In this document: in pieces, positions 1,309 through 55,535 of the stretch
Position numbering within the stretch: position 1 is the stretch's first letter
Layout: each line of letters opens with the position of its first letter
Assembly: GCA_964203045.1 (NCBI GenBank)
Contig: CAXNKU010000002.1
Location: forward strand, 7,269 to 71,268
Direction: 5' to 3'
Length of the DNA stretch: 64,000 nt
Source of the DNA: Gaiellales bacterium
GTDB lineage: Bacteria; Actinomycetota; Thermoleophilia; Gaiellales; F1-60-MAGs149
Notes under the pieces: model-generated
Told to the model about the DNA's origin: nothing
Databases searched by the model: none
The model's input: only the letters and a program-made list of their open reading frames with translations
Made by a program: the position numbers and the translations under genes

Positions 1309-1416
1309 CGGCGTAAGCGGTCGGTCGCCACACCGCCGACCCCTCCGCAACATGTGCAGTTCGCAAACCCGCGCTCCGTTTCCAAATGACCGGCAGACAC
1401 GGCAAGATGCGCACGC

Positions 1417-1989
1417 ATGGCTGATCCCTCTGTCTACGACGCCGACCTTGTTCGTCGTGCGCGCGTGGCGCACACAGCGGGCGACCTCCGGACGGCGCAG
1501 AACCACGCTGCCGAGCTCTGGCTGCGTTACGAGAAGCAGGCCCGGGCGATTTCGCGTAAGCGTGCGCGTGGCGATGAGGCGGAAGAGGTACTGGGTCATC
1601 TCCAGTTGCGCTTTATCAAGTGGGTGTACTTCCGACAGGACGAGCCGCGCAACATGATTGGCCTGCTCAATCAGATGGCGTCGTACGCCTATGGCGATGT
1701 GCAGCGGCACGAGGCGAGCCAGCCCGTCACGGTCGAGGAGATCGAGGACTACCGTCAGCCTCACACGGATCGCACGCTCTCGACGATCTTGGACCGCGCA
1801 GAAATCGACCAACTGATGTCTGTCTTGAGCGATCGCGAGCGTCTGATTATCGAGCGCGAATTGGCTGATGTGACCGATTCTGAGGTTGCGGCCGAGCTCG
1901 AGATTGAGCCAAATAACCTGCACCAAATTCGTTGGCGCGCGCTGAAACGCATGCGCGAGGCGGCCGACCAGCAAGAATGGGGTTCGTAA
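1417..1989 (+). CDS. ECF-type sigma-70 factor (divergent)
   Basis: 190 aa. Region-2-like N-terminus (DADLVRRA..GD..AELWLRY..EAEEVL) and region-4 HTH (LSDRERLII..DSEVAAELEI..NNLHQIRWRALKRMRE). Confidence 0.8.
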   Translation: MADPSVYDADLVRRARVAHTAGDLRTAQNHAAELWLRYEKQARAISRKRARGDEAEEVLGHLQLRFIKWVYFRQDEPRNMIGLLNQMASYAYGDVQRHEASQPVTVEEIEDYRQPHTDRTLSTILDRAEIDQLMSVLSDRERLIIERELADVTDSEVAAELEIEPNNLHQIRWRALKRMREAADQQEWGS

Positions 1990-2600
1990 TGGACGAACGC
2001 GAGATTCAGCTCGGCAACCTGCTGGCCGAGACGCTGGTGGCGTTCGACGAGGGCCGATCGGCTGATGTTGACCGGTTATTGGACAGCGCGGGCAGCGATC
2101 GTTTAGAGCTCGTCGAGATGGTCGAGCTCTCGCTGACACTCCGTGGCCCTTCGTCACCGAGCAGCGAGGCGATTGAGGCGCTGGCCATGACACCCGCGTT
2201 CGACGCCCGTTCGTGGCCCGAGATCCTGACGGATGCGCGACACGCGCAGGGCCTCAAGCGCCCAGCCCTCGTCGCGGCCTTGGCAAAGCACCTTGGCATC
2301 GTGTCACCCGATGGCGAGGAGCGGGTGCGCGAGCGCTATCACGAGATTGAGACGGGACAACTCGACCCGCGCCGCATTTCGATGGCGGTCGTTGACGCGC
2401 TCGGCGACATCTTGGGCGGCATGCGTGCCGTGCTCGATGCCACGCGCCTCAACCCGATTGGGCCACTCAGTCCAGACGTGTCATTTATGCGCGATGGCTT
2501 CGACGATGTCGACGGCATGGTGCTGATGGACGCGATGATGGCGCCCCCAGCCGAGCCGACGGTCGACGAACGTCGTGTCGACGAGCTGTTCGGCGTCTAG
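1989..2600 (+). CDS. Hypothetical protein with a central XRE/Cro-like HTH (candidate anti-sigma or repressor)
   Basis: ATG overlaps the sigma stop (TAATG). Segment ILTDARHAQGLKRPALVAALAKHLG..YHEIETGQLDP..VVDALGDILG fits the XRE pattern. Confidence 0.6.
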   Translation: MDEREIQLGNLLAETLVAFDEGRSADVDRLLDSAGSDRLELVEMVELSLTLRGPSSPSSEAIEALAMTPAFDARSWPEILTDARHAQGLKRPALVAALAKHLGIVSPDGEERVRERYHEIETGQLDPRRISMAVVDALGDILGGMRAVLDATRLNPIGPLSPDVSFMRDGFDDVDGMVLMDAMMAPPAEPTVDERRVDELFGV

Positions 2601-2612
2601 CGCCGCGGCGCC

Positions 2613-3185
2613 CTAGGCCGTACCGACGTAATCGGTCGGTCGTGGCAGCTTGCTGATGTACTTGTAGTTGTAGAGGCGCCAGGCCATCGCCAAGGGCGAC
2701 ACGTCGAAGCGCTCGGCTGCTTTGACGACATCGGCACCATGTTGATCTACGTCCGCGTGAATTCGTTCCTCGGGCATAAGCAGTTCGGCGGCGAACCGGT
2801 TCGCCTCGCGCTCGCGGAGATAGTCGGGCGACTTTTTCTTGTTCTGCTTCTCGTCGCTCGTGATGTCGCCGAGTCGACAGATGAAGTTCGTCGTCACCTC
2901 GTTGGCGTGGAGTTCCCAATGACCAATCTCGTGGGCGATCGTGAAGCGCCGGCGAACGGGCCACTTTTCGCACTCCACCGCATTGACACGAATCTCTCGC
3001 TCGCGCAACAGCAACATCCCCGACACACCTGTTTCAAGTGGCGCGGTCTGAACGAGCAGTCCGAGGTACGACTCAGCAATCTCGTCGACAGGGATCGGCG
3101 CATCTTTCGGAACGGCGTACGTGTCTGCATACCGCGCGAGTAGGTCGCGCGCAGCAACGATTTCGCGGTCTTCGGTGACGCTCAT
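2613..3185 (-). CDS. ImmA/IrrE family Zn metallo-endopeptidase
   Basis: PIPVDEIA, RRRFTIAHEIGH (HExxH) and EREANRFAAELLMP; TACGAT box 6 nt before ATG 3185. Confidence 0.92.
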   Translation of the reverse strand: MSVTEDREIVAARDLLARYADTYAVPKDAPIPVDEIAESYLGLLVQTAPLETGVSGMLLLREREIRVNAVECEKWPVRRRFTIAHEIGHWELHANEVTTNFICRLGDITSDEKQNKKKSPDYLREREANRFAAELLMPEERIHADVDQHGADVVKAAERFDVSPLAMAWRLYNYKYISKLPRPTDYVGTA

Positions 3186-3321: not shown

Positions 3322-3389
3322 CGGACACCATGGGCCCGGGCCCAAAATGTCCGTGAGGCGACATTCTGGGCCCGGGCCCAGAATGTCGC
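3322..3389. repeat. Two tandem GGGCCCGGGCCC-core palindromes (REP-like); a degenerate half-copy lies at ~3214-3237
   Basis: 3322-3353 CGGACACCATGGGCCC|GGGCCCAAAATGTCCG (imperfect); 3358-3389 GCGACATTCTGGGCCC|GGGCCCAGAATGTCGC (perfect, 32 bp). Confidence 0.9.
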
Positions 3390-3471: not shown

Positions 3472-6400
3472 ATGCAGGCAGGCGAACACATCGGCGGTCT
3501 CTATGATCGCCAGTTTGAGCACGACGCCTGTGGGCTTGGCACGGTCGTGCAGCTCGACGGCGTCGCATCGCACAGCGTCGTCGAACAGGCGCTCGAAGTA
3601 CTCGAGCGGCTCGATCATCGCGGCGCCACGGGCTCCGATCCGGAAACGGGTGACGGTGCGGGCATCTTGCTCCAAATGCCGCACCGCTTTCTCGCACGCG
3701 TCGCCGCCGAAGACGGCATCGACCTGCCCCCCGCCGGTGACTACGGGATTGGCATGGTCTTCCTCCCCGAAGACCCGGCGCTGCGCCTCCGCTGCGAAGA
3801 GATCGCCGTGCGCATCGTCGCCGAAGAGGGCCACCGCGCAGTGGGTTGGCGCAACGTGCCCGTCGACAACACTGCGATCGGGCCAGTCGCACGCTCGTCT
3901 GCACCCGTCATTCGCCAGCTAATCGTCGAGCGCCGCCACGGCAAGCAAGACGCCTTCGAACGGAAGCTCTACGTGATCCGGCGTCGGATCGAGAAGACCG
4001 TTCAGGCAAGCGTCATACAGAACACCTTTGCGATCGTCAGCCTCTCGACAAAGACGATCGTCTACAAGGGCCTGCTCCGAGCAACACAGGTGACTGCGTA
4101 CTACCCCGACCTTACCGACCGCGACGTCGAATCGGCACTGGCACTCGTCCACTCGCGCTTCTCCACCAACACGATGGGCACGTGGGACCTCGCGCATCCG
4201 TTCCACATGATCGCCCACAACGGCGAGATCAACACCGTCCGCGGCAACAGCAACTGGATGGCAGCACGCGAGCCACAGATGCACAGCAAACTCTTTGGTG
4301 GTGACCTCCAGAAGCTCTACCCCATCACCGAAGAAGGCTGGTCGGACTCGGCCAAGCTCGATGCCGCACTCGAACTACTCGTCCAAGCCGGACGATCGTT
4401 GGAGCACTCGCTCGCCATGCTGATCCCACCCGCCTGGAGCGACACCACGCTCGAGATGGACGATGACATCCGCGCGTTCTACGAGTATCACACGACGCTG
4501 ATGGAACCCTGGGACGGCCCGGCAGCCGTGATTGCGACCGACGGCGACAAGGTCGTCGCGACGCTCGACCGCAACGGACTTCGCCCCGGCCGTTGGCTGC
4601 GCACCAAAGACGGCATCTGCATCCTCGCCTCCGAGATTGGCGTGCTCGACATCCCCCAGTCCGAGATTGTCGAGACCGGCCGCCTCGAGCCAGGTCGGAT
4701 GCTGATGTTCGACACCGCCTCAGGCCGCGTGATCAAAGACCACGAGATCAAGCGCATCCTCTCGCGCCAACGCCCGTATCGCCAATGGCTCGATCAGTAC
4801 AAGTTGCACCTCGACGACCTGCGTCCGCAACAGGGCATCGCAGTTGACGAGGGGGCGCTCCCGACGCTCCAACGCATCTTCGGCTACACCCGCGAAGACC
4901 TCTCGCTGCTGCTGGCACCGATGGCGCTGACGGGCGGTGAGCCGATCGGCTCGATGGGTGACGACACGCCACTGGCTGCCCTCACACATCGCAATCGTCT
5001 GCTGCCGAGCTACTTCAAGCAGCAGTTCGCTCAGGTCACAAACCCGCCGATCGACTCGGAGCGCGAGCGCCTTGTGATGAGCCTACGCGTCGGTGTCGGT
5101 GCAATCGGCAACCTGCTCGACGAGACACCAGAGCACTGCCGTCGTGTCACGACATTGAGCCCGATCCTGACGAACGGCGAGTTGGAGAAGTTACGAGCGC
5201 TGCGCCGCGAAGGCTTCCGGGCCGCCACGATCTCCACGCTCTACCCGCTCGCGGAGGGCGAGGCCGGGCTCGCCCGCGCACTCGACCTGATCTGCCGTGA
5301 GGCCTCGCAACTGGTCTGGGGCGGCACCACAATCGTGATCCTTTCCGACCGCGGTGCCGACACGACGCTCGCACCAATCCCACCGCTGCTCGCGATCGCC
5401 GCCGTCCACTCGCATCTCGTCCGCCAAGGCGCGCGCACGATGTGTGGTCTTGTTGTCGAGTCGGGCGAGCCACGCGAAACGATGCACATGGCGCTGCTGA
5501 TTGGCTATGGCGCGGCGGCCGTCAACCCCTACCTGGCACTCGAGTCACTCCGCGAACTGCACCAGACAGGCGAGCTCGGCGACCTCGATCTCGGCGAGGC
5601 CCGCAAGCGCTACATCCAAGCGCTTGGCAAGGGGCTCCTGAAGATCTGCTCGAAGATGGGCATCTCGACGATCCAGTCGTATCGTGGCGCACAGATCTTC
5701 GAGGCCGTTGGCCTTGGACGCGAGCTGATCGACCGCTACTTCCCCGGCACGATCTCGCGCGTCGGCGGGCTTGAGCTGGGCGACATCGCCGATGAAATTC
5801 GCGAGCGTTACGAACTCGACGTCCAATCCGCACTGCCCGACGACCTCCTCGAAGCCGGCGGCGAGTATCAATTCCGCATCGATGGCGAGCGCCACGCGTG
5901 GCGCCCCGACTCGATCGTCGCGCTGCAGCGCGCCGTCCGCGACGAGTCGTACGAGACCTACCGTGCGTTCGCCGAGCAGATCGACGCCGGCACAGATCGC
6001 GCCATCGCCCTCCGCGATATCTTCGAGATCGTGCCAGCTGGTCCGCCCGTGCCACTCGACGAGGTCGAGCCCTCGAGCGAGATCGTGCGTCGTTTTGCGA
6101 CCGGCGCGATGAGCCTCGGCTCGATCTCGCGCGAGGCACACGAGACGTTGGCAATCGCCATGAACCGCCTCGGCGGCAGGTCCAATACGGGCGAGGGCGG
6201 CGAGGACGCAGTGCGCTCCACCCCCGACGCCAATGGCGATTTGCGGCGCTCGGCAATCAAGCAGGTCGCGTCGGGCCGCTTTGGTGTGACGACGCCGTAC
6301 CTCGTCGATGCCGACCAGGTCCAGATCAAAATGGCCCAAGGCGCAAAGCCCGGCGAGGGTGGACAGTTGCCGGGCCATAAGGTCGATGACTACATCGCAA

Positions 6401-7987
6401 AGGTTCGCCACTCGACGCCCGGCGTGGGCTTGATTAGCCCGCCCCCGCACCACGACATCTACTCGATCGAGGACCTCGCACAGCTGATCCACGACCTCAA
6501 ATGCGTCAATCCACAGGCCGACATCTCGGTCAAGCTGGTCGCCGAGGCTGGTGTCGGCACCGTCGCCGCTGGCGTCGCAAAGGCGAAGGCCGAACACATT
6601 GTCATCTCCGGCCACGACGGCGGCACGGGAGCCTCACCGCTTTCGTCGCTGAAGTACGCAGGCCTGCCGTGGGAGATGGGCCTTGCCGAGGCGCACGAGG
6701 TGCTCGTGATGAACGACCTGCGCGCACAGGTGACGCTGCAGGTCGATGGTGGTCTCCGCACCGGTCGCGACGTGATGGTCGGCGCGCTGCTCGGGGCCGA
6801 AGAATTCGGCTTCTCGACGGCACCGCTAATCGCCGCGGGCTGCATCATGATGCGCGTCTGCCATCTCAACACGTGCCCGGTTGGCATCGCCACGCAGGAC
6901 CCGGTCTTGCGCGAGCGCTTCCGTGGCACTCCCGACGAAATCGTCCGCTACTTCCTGTTCGTCGCCGAGCACCTGCGCGAGCTGATGGCCGAGGTCGGTA
7001 TCCGCACGGTCGACGAGCTGATTGGTCGCCGCGACCTCCTGCGCGAGCGCACCGACCGACCCAGTCTGGCTGGAGAACCTCGATCTCTCGCCGATCCTCG
7101 CGCACCCCCGCCTCCCGGGCGACCCTGCGCCGATTCGCAGCCGTGCACAGGACCACATGCTCGCGAGCAAGATCGACATTGGCGTCATCGCCGAGGCCGA
7201 GCCGGCGCTTGCCAAGGGCAAGCACGTCGTGATCGAACGCGAGGTCCGCAACATCGACCGCACGTTTGGAGCGATGCTGGCCGGTGAGATCGTGCGCCGC
7301 GTTGGTCCGGATGGGCTCCCAGCCGGCACGATCCAGCTGCGCCTGACCGGTCATGGCGGCCAGTCGTTCGGCGCCTTTGCCTTTAACGGCATGGAGATCT
7401 CGCTGACGGGCCCCGTCAACGACTACGTTGGCAAGGGACTCTCGGGCGGAGTAATCGCCGTCCGCGCAGCCGCCGACGCCGGCTACGACGTCGCCACCTC
7501 CTCCTACATCGGCAACGTTGCGCTGTACGGAGCGACCTCTGGTTCGGCGTTCCTGCGGGGTCGTGCCGGCGAACGTTTCTGTGTCCGCAACTCCGGCGCA
7601 ACAGCCGTCGTCGAGGGTGTCGGCGACCACGGGTGTGAGTACATGACAGGTGGCGTGGCCGTGATCCTCGGACCGACGGGCCGCAACTTTGCCGCCGGCA
7701 TGTCGGGTGGCATTGCCTTCGTCCTCGATGACGACGGGCGTCTTAACGAGCGCATCAACCCGGCCAGCGTGTCACTCGACCCGGTCGAGAGCGCCGAGGA
7801 CCGCGAGCTGCTCAAGAGCCTGCTCGAGGAGCACGTTGCCCGCACCGATAGTCCCGTCGCGGCCGCGCTCCTCGCCGACTGGACGAACGCGCTGAAGCGC
7901 TTCATCAAGGTGATGCCAGACGATTACGCGCGCGTGCTCGCCGAGCGCGCCGCGAAGGACATAGAGGCGGCGATCGCTGGTGACTGA
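3472..7987 (+). CDS. gltB: Glutamate synthase large subunit (one +1 frameshift near 7060, probably a sequencing error)
   Basis: [29 protein letters not shown] and CHLNTC motifs; the GXGXG C-terminal domain continues in ORF 7022-7987. Confidence 0.95.
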
Positions 7988-9407
7988 CCCCAAAGGTTTT
8001 CTTACGATTCAACGGCACGTTGCGCCGTATCGCCCCGTCGACGTGCGGCTACAAGACTATGCCGCCGTCGCACCAGAGGCAGACACCGAAATCGTTCGCG
8101 AGCAGGCCCGCCGCTGTATGGATTGCGGCGTCCCCTTCTGCCACACGGGCTGCCCACTCGGCAACCTGATTCCTGAATGGAACGACCTCGTCGAGCGAGA
8201 CCACTTTAAGGACGCGATCGATCGTCTGCACGCGACGAACAACTTCCCCGAATTTACCGGTGCGATCTGCCCCGCCCCCTGCGAGGAGGCGTGTGTCTTG
8301 GCGCTCGAGGAGCAGCCGGTCACGATCAAGCAAGATCGAAATGTCAATCATCGATCGTGCCTTCGCTGAGGGCTGGGTGCTTCCCCAGCGAGCGCCACGC
8401 TCGACGGGCAAAGCGGATCGCCGTCGTTGGTTCGGGACCCGGCTGGCCTCGCCTGCGCTCAGCAGCTCGTCCGCGAAGGTCATAGCGTCACGGTCTTCGA
8501 GCGTGCCGACCAGCTTGGCGGGCTCCTGCGCTACGGCATTCCCGACTTCAAGTTAGAGAAGCAGATGATCGATCGCCGCCTCGCAGCAGCTGGAGGCTGA
8601 AGGGATCGAGTTTGCGACGGGCATCGATGTTGGTGGCGACCTTTCGTATGACGAGCTGCGCGAGGGCGTTGACGCGATCGTGCTCGCGACGGGCGCTCAG
8701 CGCCACCGTGACCTCGTGCTCCCAGGTCGCGAGCTTGCGGGTGTCGAATTCGCGATGCCCTATCTGACACAGCAGAATCGTCGCGTCGCAGGCCTCCCGA
8801 TCGAGGGGCCGGAGATTTCGGCCAAGGGTAAGCGAGTTGCCATCCTTGGCGGCGGCGACACTAGCTCTGACTGCCTCGGCAATGCGTTGCGCGAAGGCGC
8901 GATCGAGGTCCACGAGATCGCCCACGGCCCAACGCCACCAAGCGAGCGCAACCCGCAGAGGACCTGGCCGGAATGGCCCGTCGTGATGCGCACCTACGCG
9001 GCACACCAAGAGGGTGGCGTGCGCGAATGGCAGTTCGTCACCGATCGACTCGAAGGCGAGCAGGGACACGCTAAAACGCCTCGTTGGCCACCGCGTGGAC
9101 TTCCCGGGCTATGCCGAGACAGGCGTCCGCAAAGCCGAACTCGTGCCGGACGGAGACGTCGTGCTCGAGGTCGACCTCGTGCTGCTCGCAATTGGCTTTT
9201 CGGGCACCGAAGAAGACGACGTCTACGCGCAGTCTGGTGCCAGCTGTCGGCGACCGAGGCACCGTCCACGTCGATGCCTCGTTCGAGACCGAGACTCCCG
9301 GTGTCTACGCCTGCGGCGATGCCGTCCGTGGTGCAGATCTCGTCGTGACAGCGATCGCCGACGGCCGCAAGTGTGCCGCCGCGGTGCACGCTGCCGTCAG
9401 CGCCTAG
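7980..9407 (+). CDS. gltD: Glutamate synthase small subunit (six successive +1 frameshifts, probably sequencing errors)
   Basis: [42 protein letters not shown] and [11 protein letters not shown] are spread across successive reading frames. Confidence 0.9.
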
Positions 9408-9517
9408 CCTCGGAAACATCGATTTTGAGGGCCAAGCCCCAGATCGGGGTTGGTCGTGCCGCCGAAATCCCACGTTGTTGGCACGATTAGGGCACTGAAC
9501 TCTTCCCGGAGGATCTT

Positions 9518-18418: not shown

Positions 18419-18530
18419 GCAGGCGGACATTTTGGGCCCGGGCCCAAAATGTCCGCCTGTGTGCCAGATCATGAAACCACCCCTCGCGGGACCTGTGAGC
18501 GACTCAGCGTGACGAATACGTAATCGTCAC
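18419..18530. repeat. 112-bp composite element, copy 2 (includes a perfect 40-bp palindrome at 18420-18459)
   Basis: CAGGCGGACATTTTGGGCCC|GGGCCCAAAATGTCCGCCTG ... GTGACGAATACGTAATCGTCAC. Confidence 0.9.
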
Positions 18531-35257: not shown

Positions 35258-37885
35258 TTACGCCTCTCCCCTTGCAAGATCCGAGAACGTCGTGAAGTGC
35301 GGCATGAACGCGAGGTCCACCGCACCAACCGCACCGTTACGGTGCTTCGCCACGATCAGCTCGGCAATACCGGGCTTTTCGGACGTCTCTTTATTGTAGT
35401 AATCGTCTCGGTAGATAAACATCACGACGTCCGCGTCTTGCTCGATCGAGTTATGGACGATGATGTCTTCCGCCACGAAATTGTGGAGCCCCGTAACGGT
35501 GAGGTCGAAGACCTCTTCCTCTCCGTCGAGCTCGATGCGCGTAACTGCATCCCAGGTGACTTGCCCATCAGCCAGTCGGCGCAGCTCGTCGCTGCCGGTG
35601 ATGTCGGCGACACGGCGAGCACGCTCACGACCGAGGCCCGAGCGATAGAGCGAGGAGCCGCTGTACTGCATGCCAAGACCGGACTGCAACGCTCGCGTCG
35701 TCACGCCCGCAACCGCGAGCTGCGGCTTCACGATCGTCTGCCACGCAGAAGCGGGGATGACATCGACGTTGCTGTTGGCAACGCGACCCTCGAGCATTGT
35801 GCGGATCGAGGACAGATGAACAGCGCGTTGACCAAGACAGCCAACCGCCGTGACAAACGTGTACTGGCTGTCGTGTGATTCGATATCCACCGTGTACGAG
35901 CAATGTGTCGACCGAGCGTCGTCGCGCACACGCAGCGCAGAGGTGATGCCAAGCCGCAGCAGCAAGTGCTGGACGTCGTGTGCAAGGTCGCGGCTTGTCG
36001 TCGCATAGTAGATCCGGGACGACCGACCATCGGCGGCCGCCCAGACACTGCCATCCGTCGACCATAGGTGCCGGAGGAATAGTGCAATCAATTCGTCCGA
36101 CTGTTCGAAGATGCGCGCCGGAACGCTCTTTTCCCACGCGCGATAGCCGAATGCCCCGAGACCGTCGAGCCACGCTGCGATGGGGTTACGACGCCCCCGG
36201 GCTAGTCGCTGTGTCGCTGGCAGGTACGTCTGGAACCACGTGCGTTCGGGGCTGACTCGAGGGGTGATAGTGGTACCGAAGACCGACGATGCAAGGCCCG
36301 CAACGAGTTCGGCGAGCGGCCGTTCGGCCGTCGTGTACTGGATTGCGTGTCGGGGCAGCGTGCAGCCATCACCGATCAGGTGTCCAAGCAATGCCACCTC
36401 ATTCGGCTGCATGTCGCCGTACGTATCCGCGGGCAACTCGACCGGCACAGCGAGGCGATCACCAATCTTGAGTTGATCGAGTCGCTGCCAGTCGCCGAGC
36501 AATCGAAAACGGTGATTACCAGTCGCCCGAATCGTGCGACCCGACGCCAGCGTCAACCGGTAGACGGGCTTAACCCCAGTCGAGAACGCGTTGGTGACGA
36601 CGCGACGCTCAAGTTCCCAGGTCTCCGGGTTGACGGCTAGCACGCACTCGCCAATGCGACCGCTCATCTGATCCATCCGGATGCGCTCGCCGGAATCCGG
36701 CAGAAAGACGCGAGTGTCACCCGTCAGGCAGCCACTTTCACGAAGGTCCGACAGGAGCGGGCGCTTGTCGGTGCGCGACTCGACGGCACGCGAAAGCTGC
36801 GACAGGGCGAGGACGGGAATGTTTAGTTCGCGGGCCAGCACCTTGAGGGATCGCGAGATCTGGCTGATCTCTTGCACGCGGGATTCTGCCGTGTCGTTGG
36901 CGCTCATCAACTGGAGGTAGTCGACCAAGACGAGTCCGAGGTTCGGCTCCTTCATCTTGAGGCGCCGCGCCTTCGAGCGGATCTCCATCAGATTGATACC
37001 GGCCGTGTCGTCGACGTAGATCGGTGCCGTGGTGAGTCGGTTACAGGCGTCTTGGACGCGAACCCAATCCTCGTCGCGCAGGTCGCCGCGGCGCATCCGG
37101 GTCGAGTCCACACGCGCCTCGGAGGAGATGAAGCGCTGGGCGATTTCGTTGCGGGACATCTCGAGGCTGAAGATGACGACCGGAATTTTTGCCTCGACGC
37201 CAAGATGGCGGGCGATGCCGAGCGCGAGCGACGTCTTGCCCATCGCCGGACGGGCAGCGAGGATGACGAGGTTCGAGGCCTGGAAGCCCGAGGTGATCTT
37301 GTCGAGCGAATTGAGCCCCGAGGGTGCGCCGGTCAGACCACGGTGCTCGCCCGCCGCCTCCATCCGCTCGACCTCTTCCGGCAAGAGTTCGGAAAGCGGG
37401 ATCAGCTCGCTCGTGTTGCGCGATTGGGCCACGTCGAAGATGGCCGACTCGGCCTGATCGAGAATCTGTCTGACATCGCCCTGACGCTGATAGCCGAGCT
37501 GGGCGATCTCGAGACCGGCGGCAGCAACTCGTCGCATGATTGCCACGTCGCGGACGATCTGCGCGTGGCTCTTGGCATTTGCGGCGACCGTCACACTCGA
37601 CGAGAGGCCGAAGATAAAGCCGCGGCCCCCAACGTCTTCGAGCTTGCCCATTCGCTCCAGCTCGTCCGAGACGGTGACGGCATCGATTGGCTCGCTGCGC
37701 GTCAGCAGCGCGAGAATTGCGCGGAAGACCGTGCCGTGGGCTTCGCGATAGAAATCGCCGGGATCCCTGATCACGTCAGAGACCGTCAAGACGGCCTGCT
37801 CGTTGATCATCATCGCGCCGAGGACAGCCTCCTCAGCATCGAGGTCTTGGGGCGGGAGATTCGCCCCTTCTGGCGCGGGCGGCAT
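35258..37885 (-). CDS. dnaB: Replicative DNA helicase containing an intein
   Basis: AARPAMGKT, VDYLQL, LSQLSR, SDLRESG | intein | SIEQDAD. Confidence 0.97.
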   Translation of the reverse strand: MPPAPEGANLPPQDLDAEEAVLGAMMINEQAVLTVSDVIRDPGDFYREAHGTVFRAILALLTRSEPIDAVTVSDELERMGKLEDVGGRGFIFGLSSSVTVAANAKSHAQIVRDVAIMRRVAAAGLEIAQLGYQRQGDVRQILDQAESAIFDVAQSRNTSELIPLSELLPEEVERMEAAGEHRGLTGAPSGLNSLDKITSGFQASNLVILAARPAMGKTSLALGIARHLGVEAKIPVVIFSLEMSRNEIAQRFISSEARVDSTRMRRGDLRDEDWVRVQDACNRLTTAPIYVDDTAGINLMEIRSKARRLKMKEPNLGLVLVDYLQLMSANDTAESRVQEISQISRSLKVLARELNIPVLALSQLSRAVESRTDKRPLLSDLRESGCLTGDTRVFLPDSGERIRMDQMSGRIGECVLAVNPETWELERRVVTNAFSTGVKPVYRLTLASGRTIRATGNHRFRLLGDWQRLDQLKIGDRLAVPVELPADTYGDMQPNEVALLGHLIGDGCTLPRHAIQYTTAERPLAELVAGLASSVFGTTITPRVSPERTWFQTYLPATQRLARGRRNPIAAWLDGLGAFGYRAWEKSVPARIFEQSDELIALFLRHLWSTDGSVWAAADGRSSRIYYATTSRDLAHDVQHLLLRLGITSALRVRDDARSTHCSYTVDIESHDSQYTFVTAVGCLGQRAVHLSSIRTMLEGRVANSNVDVIPASAWQTIVKPQLAVAGVTTRALQSGLGMQYSGSSLYRSGLGRERARRVADITGSDELRRLADGQVTWDAVTRIELDGEEEVFDLTVTGLHNFVAEDIIVHNSIEQDADVVMFIYRDDYYNKETSEKPGIAELIVAKHRNGAVGAVDLAFMPHFTTFSDLARGEA
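35450..36730 (-). mobile_element. DnaB intein (427 aa) with a LAGLIDADG homing endonuclease
   Basis: Begins CLTGDT after LRESG and ends IIVHN before Ser; block B ATGNH; endonuclease motifs LLGHLIGDG and FLRHLWSTDG. Confidence 0.95.
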
Positions 37886-55420: not shown

Positions 55421-55535
55421 GTCCGAGAGACTGTACGCGCCCACCTCCACCCGCTTCGCACCGTCAACGCACCAATTCGCACATCTTACGCTGCGGATTT
55501 TTTGTTTTCTGGCTTATCTAAGCCAGCCTCTAGTT

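Follow-up and report, generated by a model that had tools for sequence, protein, structure and literature searches.

A candidate peptidase-gated ECF sigma factor module of the Thermoleophilia and its predicted link to DNA repair genes

What does a sigma factor do when it is encoded next to a helix-turn-helix protein and to a zinc peptidase of the ImmA/IrrE kind? This question is raised by a trio of genes in a 64,000-nucleotide stretch of DNA from a Gaiellales bacterium (contig CAXNKU010000002.1 of assembly GCA_964203045.1), hereafter referred to as the window. The assembly (G000 in our study) comprises 1.86 Mb and is 77% complete; close homologues carry Gaiellales names, and related DNA is present in lake, river, and drinking-water metagenomes. 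The three genes are the following:

1417-1989, forward strand: sigma gene, encoding a divergent ECF-type sigma-70 factor of 190 aa
1989-2600, forward strand: partner gene, encoding a 203-aa candidate soluble anti-sigma and peptidase substrate
2613-3185, reverse strand: peptidase gene, encoding a stand-alone ImmA/IrrE (M78) zinc peptidase of 190 aa

A first-pass annotation of the window had proposed that the partner may be both an anti-sigma factor and a substrate of the peptidase, so that a DNA-damage signal would release a sigma factor. The layout on which it built this idea was found as described: the reading frames, the TAATG in which the sigma stop codon overlaps the partner ATG at 1989, an S-F-M-R motif at 2481-2492, the 12-bp gap between the convergent partner and peptidase genes, and the HEIGH motif of the peptidase. 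Stop/start overlaps of this kind are typical of ECF/anti-sigma pairs. The annotation had also seen no phage, ICE, or defence genes nearby and, in agreement with this, no phage, ICE, or anti-phage families were detected among the 48 window genes scanned (11.7-63 kb) or in the immediate neighbours of the trio. The direct neighbours encode a quinone oxidoreductase and a glutamate synthase, most of the window is housekeeping, and no adjacent immune operon of the CapP/CapH type was found beside the trio. Some 45 kb from the trio there are two genes with PIN domains.

Three further observations concern the window itself. The reading frames of gltB/gltD (3472-9490) are split into several overlapping pieces, probably by assembly indels. 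A 28-bp palindrome at 3360-3387, upstream of gltB, is found again near 18428 and 55545, and the assembly contains 33 copies of its 22-nt core when up to 2 mismatches are allowed, many of them paired, as in REP-like elements. Finally, dnaB (35261-37885) contains an intein that carries a LAGLIDADG domain.

Our study confirmed that the sigma factor, the partner, and the M78 peptidase constitute a conserved module of the class Thermoleophilia. A partner gene was detected in 28 of 41 relatives, in 38 of 201 genomes of the class, and in 9 of 301 genomes of the phylum, all nine belonging to the Thermoleophilia; in a profile search, its family comprises 847 clusters at 50% identity. The gene-neighbourhood search suggested by the first-pass annotation covered 54 distinct genomes, after seven duplicate loci had been dropped. 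In every one of the 54, the sigma gene immediately precedes the partner gene, and the peptidase gene lies beside this pair in 51; two of the three remaining loci stop at a contig edge, and the third has its peptidase gene 7 kb off. In that genome, the distant peptidase gene adjoins a gene for ARPP-1. The three genes form a co-directional operon in 30 cases, a convergent arrangement specific to the source genus in 20, and a divergent one with the peptidase upstream in 1. The four partner-less genomes that are 96-100% complete also lack the peptidase and the sigma of this family: their best sigma factors reach 68-74 bits, compared with 94-214 bits for nine of ten module sigmas and 72 for the tenth. 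Together, the co-occurrence in 51 of 54 genomes and this joint absence indicate that the trio is more than a chance assembly. From the side of the peptidase, 13 of 80 M78 loci from GTDB have both a sigma and a partner gene, and none of these 13 comes from another phylum. G033 and G067 have additional, partial copies of sigma and partner, some close to the main module and some distant from it (L022:2084-2841, L060:2610-3342, L178). Longer partner forms or fusions were also considered and set aside; a single frameshift-like record among 7996 candidates is weak evidence against fusions.

Our preferred explanation of this module, which we consider somewhat likely, is that the peptidase cuts the partner and thereby frees a sigma factor that transcribes DNA-repair genes from YGTAAG-N18-GAC promoters. 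The identity of the sigma factor is the first point to be considered. The window protein matches TIGR02937 with an E-value of 2e-8 and 34 bits, below the cut-off of 42.9, and, as expected of the ECF group, it consists of sigma-2 and sigma-4 only, in about 190 aa. Its relatives carry Sigma70_r2/r4 and are named sigma-70/ECF, and sigmaE is the top Foldseek row for the model of one of them (E 0.1, prob 1.00). It is the single copy of its family in G000, where further ECF-like sigmas are encoded. One record (P0310) has the sigma and partner of a relative in one frame, probably through a sequencing indel; folded with 26 rows (pLDDT 81, pTM 0.59), it arranges sigma-2 and sigma-4 unlike anti-sigma-bound or polymerase-bound sigmas (rmsd 16-20).

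The peptidase matches PF06114 (E 7e-20, 71.4 bits against a cut-off of 22) and the PADLOC capP model (E 5e-30). The HEIGH motif corresponds to residues 85-89 (2919-2933, reverse strand), and H85, E86, H89, and the downstream E125 are invariant in 24 rows, as in M78 peptidases with their HExxH and downstream Glu. The closest solved structure is that of CapP (7T5T, E 2e-17), with an alignment that spans CapP residues 31-177 of 291. Cys103 (2877-2879) aligns with the loop Cys that acts as a switch in CapP, where the feature is optional, and Cys-Arg is found at this place in 23 of 24 cases.

The partner was modelled from 144 rows with a pLDDT of 91.8 and a pTM of 0.72, and the following elements can be distinguished in it:

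1995-2186, forward strand: N-domain of four helices (residues 3-20, 24-33, 35-52, and 59-66), candidate sigma-binding domain
2208-2447, forward strand: XRE/Cro helix-turn-helix domain (residues 74-153)
2481-2492, forward strand: S-F-M-R, putative cut site within a linker that is extended and modelled with low confidence (pLDDT 65-67)
2580-2591, forward strand: D-x-L-F in the C-terminal helix (pLDDT 98), which the predicted cut would remove

The central XRE-like domain that had been read from the sequence is supported by the model. Among 48,161 chains, its best match is the N-terminal XRE domain of CapH (Z 8.4, rmsd 1.9, 65 residues aligned), nearly tied with DdrO (Z 7.9) and ImmR (Z 7.6). The partner itself has no Pfam match, HTH_31 was detected in 26 of 144 family members, and Foldseek on the whole model returned similar rows, namely XRE proteins, none of them at E<=0.001.

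As in CapH, a conserved site follows the helix-turn-helix. In alignments of 150 rows, Arg168 is kept in 145 and Phe or Tyr at position 166 in 127, which establishes the conservation of the F-x-R motif across genomes that the first-pass annotation had suggested checking; D, L, and F of D-x-L-F are each kept in 149 rows. Known M78 cuts lie just C-terminal of the helix-turn-helix, between L106 and R107 in DdrO and between F95 and M96 in ImmR (PMC12828697), and between F82 and R83 in CapH (bioRxiv 2022.04.27.489752); these positions agree with the L/R, F/M, and F/R sites that the annotation had named. By analogy with these three proteins, cleavage of the partner at F-x-R is likely. A mutual-information analysis, too crude to be relied on, gave a hint of contacts between the C-terminal helix and the recognition helix of the XRE domain (112-195 and 116-202), and in a model of the CapP system the last helix of CapH docks on CapP (bioRxiv 2026.05.16.725639).

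We regard it as reasonably likely that the N-domain binds and silences the sigma factor, which would make it a candidate new anti-sigma domain in a family of 847 clusters. Counting against our preferred explanation, no match to a known anti-sigma family or to a solved anti-sigma was found for it. None of the known anti-sigma families in Pfam matched this domain in 144 partner members, neither ZAS nor a class I ASD was matched in the partner, and no solved anti-sigma structure matched the partner model, in searches of the whole protein that the XRE domain filled. In structure, the N-domain of a relative is weakly similar to the N-termini of Ser/Thr kinases from actinobacteria and planctomycetes (TM 0.58-0.63, below the bar of the tool); kinases of this kind can sit beside ECF sigmas.

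The XRE domain keeps Arg84, Arg91, His118, and Glu121, DNA-binding-like residues that would be superfluous for a pure anti-sigma and that also weigh against the preferred explanation. Together with the closeness of the fold to CapH, and with the fact that every characterised M78 substrate in the literature covered is a repressor, they speak for a partner that is a CapH/DdrO-type repressor with an extra oligomerisation domain, whose cleavage derepresses the sigma gene or its promoters while the sigma acts as a downstream amplifier that never binds the partner. We consider this unlikely: no conserved palindrome was seen by eye upstream of the sigma gene, full-length members all retain the N-domain, and no partner was seen without a sigma gene directly upstream (54 of 54).

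If the partner controls a sigma factor, the promoters that this factor reads should be recognisable, beginning with its own. The regions in front of the sigma and peptidase genes contain the following elements:

1312-1340, forward strand: candidate autoregulatory ECF promoter, with -35 CGTAAG (1312-1317) and -10 GAC (1338-1340)
1352-1657, forward strand: out-of-frame reading frame of 101 codons that begins 11 nt after the motif and overruns the sigma start
1403-1408, forward strand: putative housekeeping-type -10 box (CAAGAT), 8 nt upstream of the sigma start codon
3192-3197, reverse strand: putative housekeeping-type -10 box (TACGAT), 6 nt upstream of the peptidase start codon

Of 49 loci, 33 have the motif GTAAG-N16-20-GAC upstream of the sigma gene, compared with 3.3% of random windows, a conservation that points to the autoregulatory bipartite promoter expected of an ECF sigma. 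It is asymmetric, bipartite, and fixed-spaced, often 8-11 nt before the start codon, and by eye no palindromic operator of the IrrE/DdrO type was seen as a shared site. Its spacer measures 18 nt in the source genus and 19 in several other families. The window has 20 nt where its relatives have 18, and contigs of two independent runs (lake and drinking water, of three runs examined) lack these 2 nt, so the longer spacer is a strain variant or an assembly slip; it may be the same kind of indel as in gltB/gltD. In a wider tally of 58 sigma upstreams, 33 have GTAAG, 9 have GTCAG, and 16 have neither (backgrounds of 2.9% and 1.7%); the last figure, like the 20-nt spacer of the window's own copy, counts against our preferred explanation. 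Where GTCAG-type sigmas were checked, their sigma-4 helix differs (3 rows compared with 23), and GTCAG also stands at ARPP-1 in two genomes of this type, only one of which has strict GTCAG at its own sigma gene. The motif resembles SigD-type promoters, with their autoregulatory GTAA-type -35 and GA(T/C) -10; those of C. glutamicum SigD read GTAAC and GAT (PMC6338062). On these patterns, the module's sigma factor very probably reads YGTAAG-N18-GAC.

The unusually long spacer, the retained helix-turn-helix, and the score of the sigma under the TIGR02937 cut-off would also suit a positive cofactor, that is, a cleaved-off XRE domain which helps a divergent sigma to use promoters with spacers of 18-19 nt. 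A third conserved box is absent by eye from the target promoters and no precedent was found in the literature searched, and we hold this role to be improbable.

Among 31 loci from three families, an ATG 8-13 nt past the motif is in the +1 frame relative to the sigma gene in 25, many of them close kin, and in frame in 6. The out-of-frame reading frame at 1352-1657 is probably regulatory and not a protein gene. The position of CAAGAT, at which relatives have by eye CAGAAT, CAAGAT, TAAGAT, or TATCCT, suggests a leaderless basal sigma transcript, and that of TACGAT likewise suggests leaderless basal expression of the peptidase. It is possible that the out-of-frame leader provides negative feedback, by which the induced transcript would yield partner and little sigma. 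The RNA found consists of one 205-nt contig within the sigma gene in one metatranscriptome; the transcription start is absent from this contig.

Which other genes would such a sigma factor transcribe? By count alone the motif shows no genome-wide excess, forward and control counts being mixed, and enrichment appears only by position relative to genes. In G000, 7 of 9 copies of CGTAAG-N18-GAC lie just before a gene, compared with 14 of the 93 copies that have other spacers (p 2e-4). According to gene calls from a codon model made for this analysis, the seven targets are radA-disA, addB-addA, a yhaO/SbcD-like nuclease with its AAA_27 partner, a gene of the sce7726 family, ARPP-1, clpC, and a 104-aa unknown. 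The incomplete G000 assembly contains no recA, which is another point against the preferred explanation; in the source genus, the motif precedes recA in 17 of 21 genomes, compared with 8 of 1748 control genes of G000. A motif search of 13 genomes (10 of 13 hits fetched for G008 and 10 of 14 for G006) gave target clusters at the module (8), yhaO (8), addB (7), recA (6), radA (5), dgt (4), ARPP-1 (4), sce7726 (3), and clpC (2), counts that are not independent, the source-genus members being close kin. These clusters recur between genomes with diverged spacers. The motif in front of recA, radA, addBA, and yhaO provides independent support for the DNA-damage role that the first-pass annotation had proposed.

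Other genes preceded by the motif in this genus (L103:1853-2164, L218, L228, L236, L098, L217) encode a 104-aa unknown, small membrane proteins, a PHP phosphatase, type I methyltransferase-like proteins, and a protein of about 345 aa with a signal-peptide-like start. A copy of CGTAAG-N19-GAC at 55490 (reverse strand), beside a REP-like element and before a doubtful 121-aa reading frame, may be due to chance.

A dispersed set of DNA-repair genes with a common site, as in the IrrE/DdrO system, was found inside the source genus only. A class-wide recA/radA/addB regulon was rejected: outside the genus the motif precedes recA in 0 of 30, radA in 0 of 26, and addB in 1 of 15 cases, the last count after five partial matches had been dropped and with its sole positive in a module-less genome (G032). 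The f5 genomes, searched with CGTAAG only (25 matches), showed no common repair target. This failure of the repair targets outside the source genus is a further point against our preferred explanation. Across families, the motif marks only the module and ARPP-1 (PF20208; L279-L292; G000:C2:118452), its most conserved target: ARPP-1 occurs in 10 of 16 module-bearing and 1 of 14 module-less genomes, and in 9 of the former 10 no more than 10 kb separate it from the partner. Among 12 ARPP-1 loci, 8 have GTAAG, 2 have GTCAG, 1 has a GAT variant, and the module-less one has none. The class-wide core would thus comprise the module and ARPP-1, with the repair regulon as a genus-level expansion.

The motif before addB in module-less G032 could mean that another, more general ECF sigma reads it, that control by the trio is limited to its own genes and ARPP-1, and that the link to repair is indirect. 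The further ECF-like sigmas of G000 fit such a scheme, as do G019, G001, and G015, in which target motifs were present and the partner was not found; these three genomes, however, are merely 61-82% complete. In addition, none of the three motif copies in module-less G069 (96% complete) precedes a gene, the motif variant tracks the type of the module's sigma, and the sole module-less ARPP-1 gene lacks the motif. We consider it improbable that a different sigma factor is responsible. Separately, the idea that G019 had lost motif and module together was discarded, as the motif is kept there at yhaO, addB, and clpC.

The repair regulon would operate beside LexA and a PafBC-like regulator: lexA was found in 5 of 5 genomes and a tandem-WYL gene (an open frame of about 700 aa) in 4 of 5. 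Upstream of recA, radA, and addB, a second signal, GTCCG/CCGTC-N10-11-TANNNT, recurs by eye across the class (L109-L159, L257-L277, L302-L331), and we take it to resemble the PafBC-dependent RecA-NDp promoter.

The signal that activates the peptidase is the next question. The first-pass annotation had invoked sensing of DNA damage or ssDNA, and direct sensing as in CapP and IrrE, which is compatible with the other steps of our preferred explanation, could draw on the CapP-like cysteine switch, on the DNA-repair targets, and on a surface that the partner's XRE domain could supply. This proposal is weakened by the lack of a GAF domain, since the 190-aa peptidase ends before the GAF region of CapP. 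In CapP/IrrE, half of the groove for ssDNA is made up by the GAF domain, and CapP binds ssDNA between this domain and the peptidase domain (bioRxiv 2026.05.16.725639). ImmA, which has no GAF domain, shows no stimulation by ssDNA (PMC12828697), and IrrE without its GAF domain is still induced, responding to zinc and oxidation (PMC7907104). Direct ssDNA sensing is therefore doubtful, and we rate it as rather unlikely; zinc/redox release of the cysteine switch, or a protein partner such as RecA, would be the likelier trigger.

In the mechanism that we favour, the partner would hold the sigma factor inactive until the zinc peptidase cleaves the F-x-R linker. The cut would remove the DxLF helix and open the sigma-partner complex; alternatively, it may expose a hydrophobic end that serves as a degron for Clp proteolysis, an option suggested by F-A before the conserved Arg in 51 of 150 rows and by the motif at clpC in three genomes. 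The freed sigma would then transcribe the DNA-repair genes from YGTAAG-N18-GAC promoters. Taken as a whole, we tentatively propose, with confidence somewhat short of even, a new DNA-damage response in which an IrrE/CapP-type metallopeptidase cleaves a hybrid anti-sigma/XRE protein of a new anti-sigma family and releases an ECF sigma that directly transcribes recA, radA, addBA, and other repair genes. In freshwater Gaiellales this would be a third damage pathway, next to those of LexA and PafBC, and an out-of-frame leader would provide negative feedback.

The module resembles CapP/CapH and IrrE/DdrO in its predicted working and belongs to neither, because it has no GAF domain and no adjacent immune operon and its shared site is non-palindromic. 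With CapP/CapH it shares an M78 peptidase with a cysteine switch, an XRE partner with an aromatic/Arg site after the helix-turn-helix and a C-terminal helix, and, occasionally in that system, a sigma neighbour. In contrast to it, the window peptidase lacks the GAF domain, the partner is twice as long and has the four-helix N-domain, the sigma is always present, the module is chromosomal and lineage-bound, and its predicted targets are core repair genes and ARPP-1 instead of an adjacent immune operon. The radiation-desiccation response of Deinococcus, with IrrE/PprI and DdrO, likewise combines an M78 peptidase, an XRE substrate, and a dispersed LexA-independent DNA-repair regulon; DdrO, however, is a repressor, whereas the module's shared site resembles an ECF -35/-10 promoter, its sigma is coupled to the substrate, and its peptidase lacks GAF. 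ImmA/ImmR of ICEBs1 has a similarly short GAF-less peptidase and an F/M cut in ImmR, where the window partner reads F-M-R, but it is a mobile-element repressor switch without a sigma. The coupled sigma-partner genes are reminiscent of ECF sigmas with soluble anti-sigmas such as ChrR, RshA, and NepR (PMC8999054); the release mechanisms listed in that review are conformational change, partner switch, and mechanosensing, and an M78 peptidase that cuts an XRE-bearing anti-sigma is not among them. The ECF reclassification expects unrecognised soluble anti-sigmas, and its text and one supplement make no mention of M78, DUF955, or IrrE (PMC7826278). The first-pass annotation knew of no characterised system with this three-part layout. 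This stands in so far as no description of the layout or of the regulon was found in the literature searched, which covered few subscription papers; it must be qualified by an uncharacterised sigma-70 gene that lies beside capH/capP in 24 CBASS loci (Lau et al., bioRxiv 10.1101/2022.04.27.489752).

Characterised M78 switches destroy a repressor, whereas the likely output of this module is a sigma factor. From the promoter predicted for it, candidate targets can be read off, among them recA and genes for double-strand-break repair. With such an output and such a promoter, a sigma-driven damage response could be put to a direct test that needs a reporter and three small soluble proteins. The GAF-less cysteine-switch peptidase offers a clean model for separating zinc/redox from ssDNA activation, and the module may explain the sigma genes noted, with no function assigned, beside capH/capP. 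The module spans one class of soil and freshwater bacteria, and we did not find its proposed control route described in the literature searched. It would also connect ARPP-1, a domain so far unexplained, with a signal of damage or stress.
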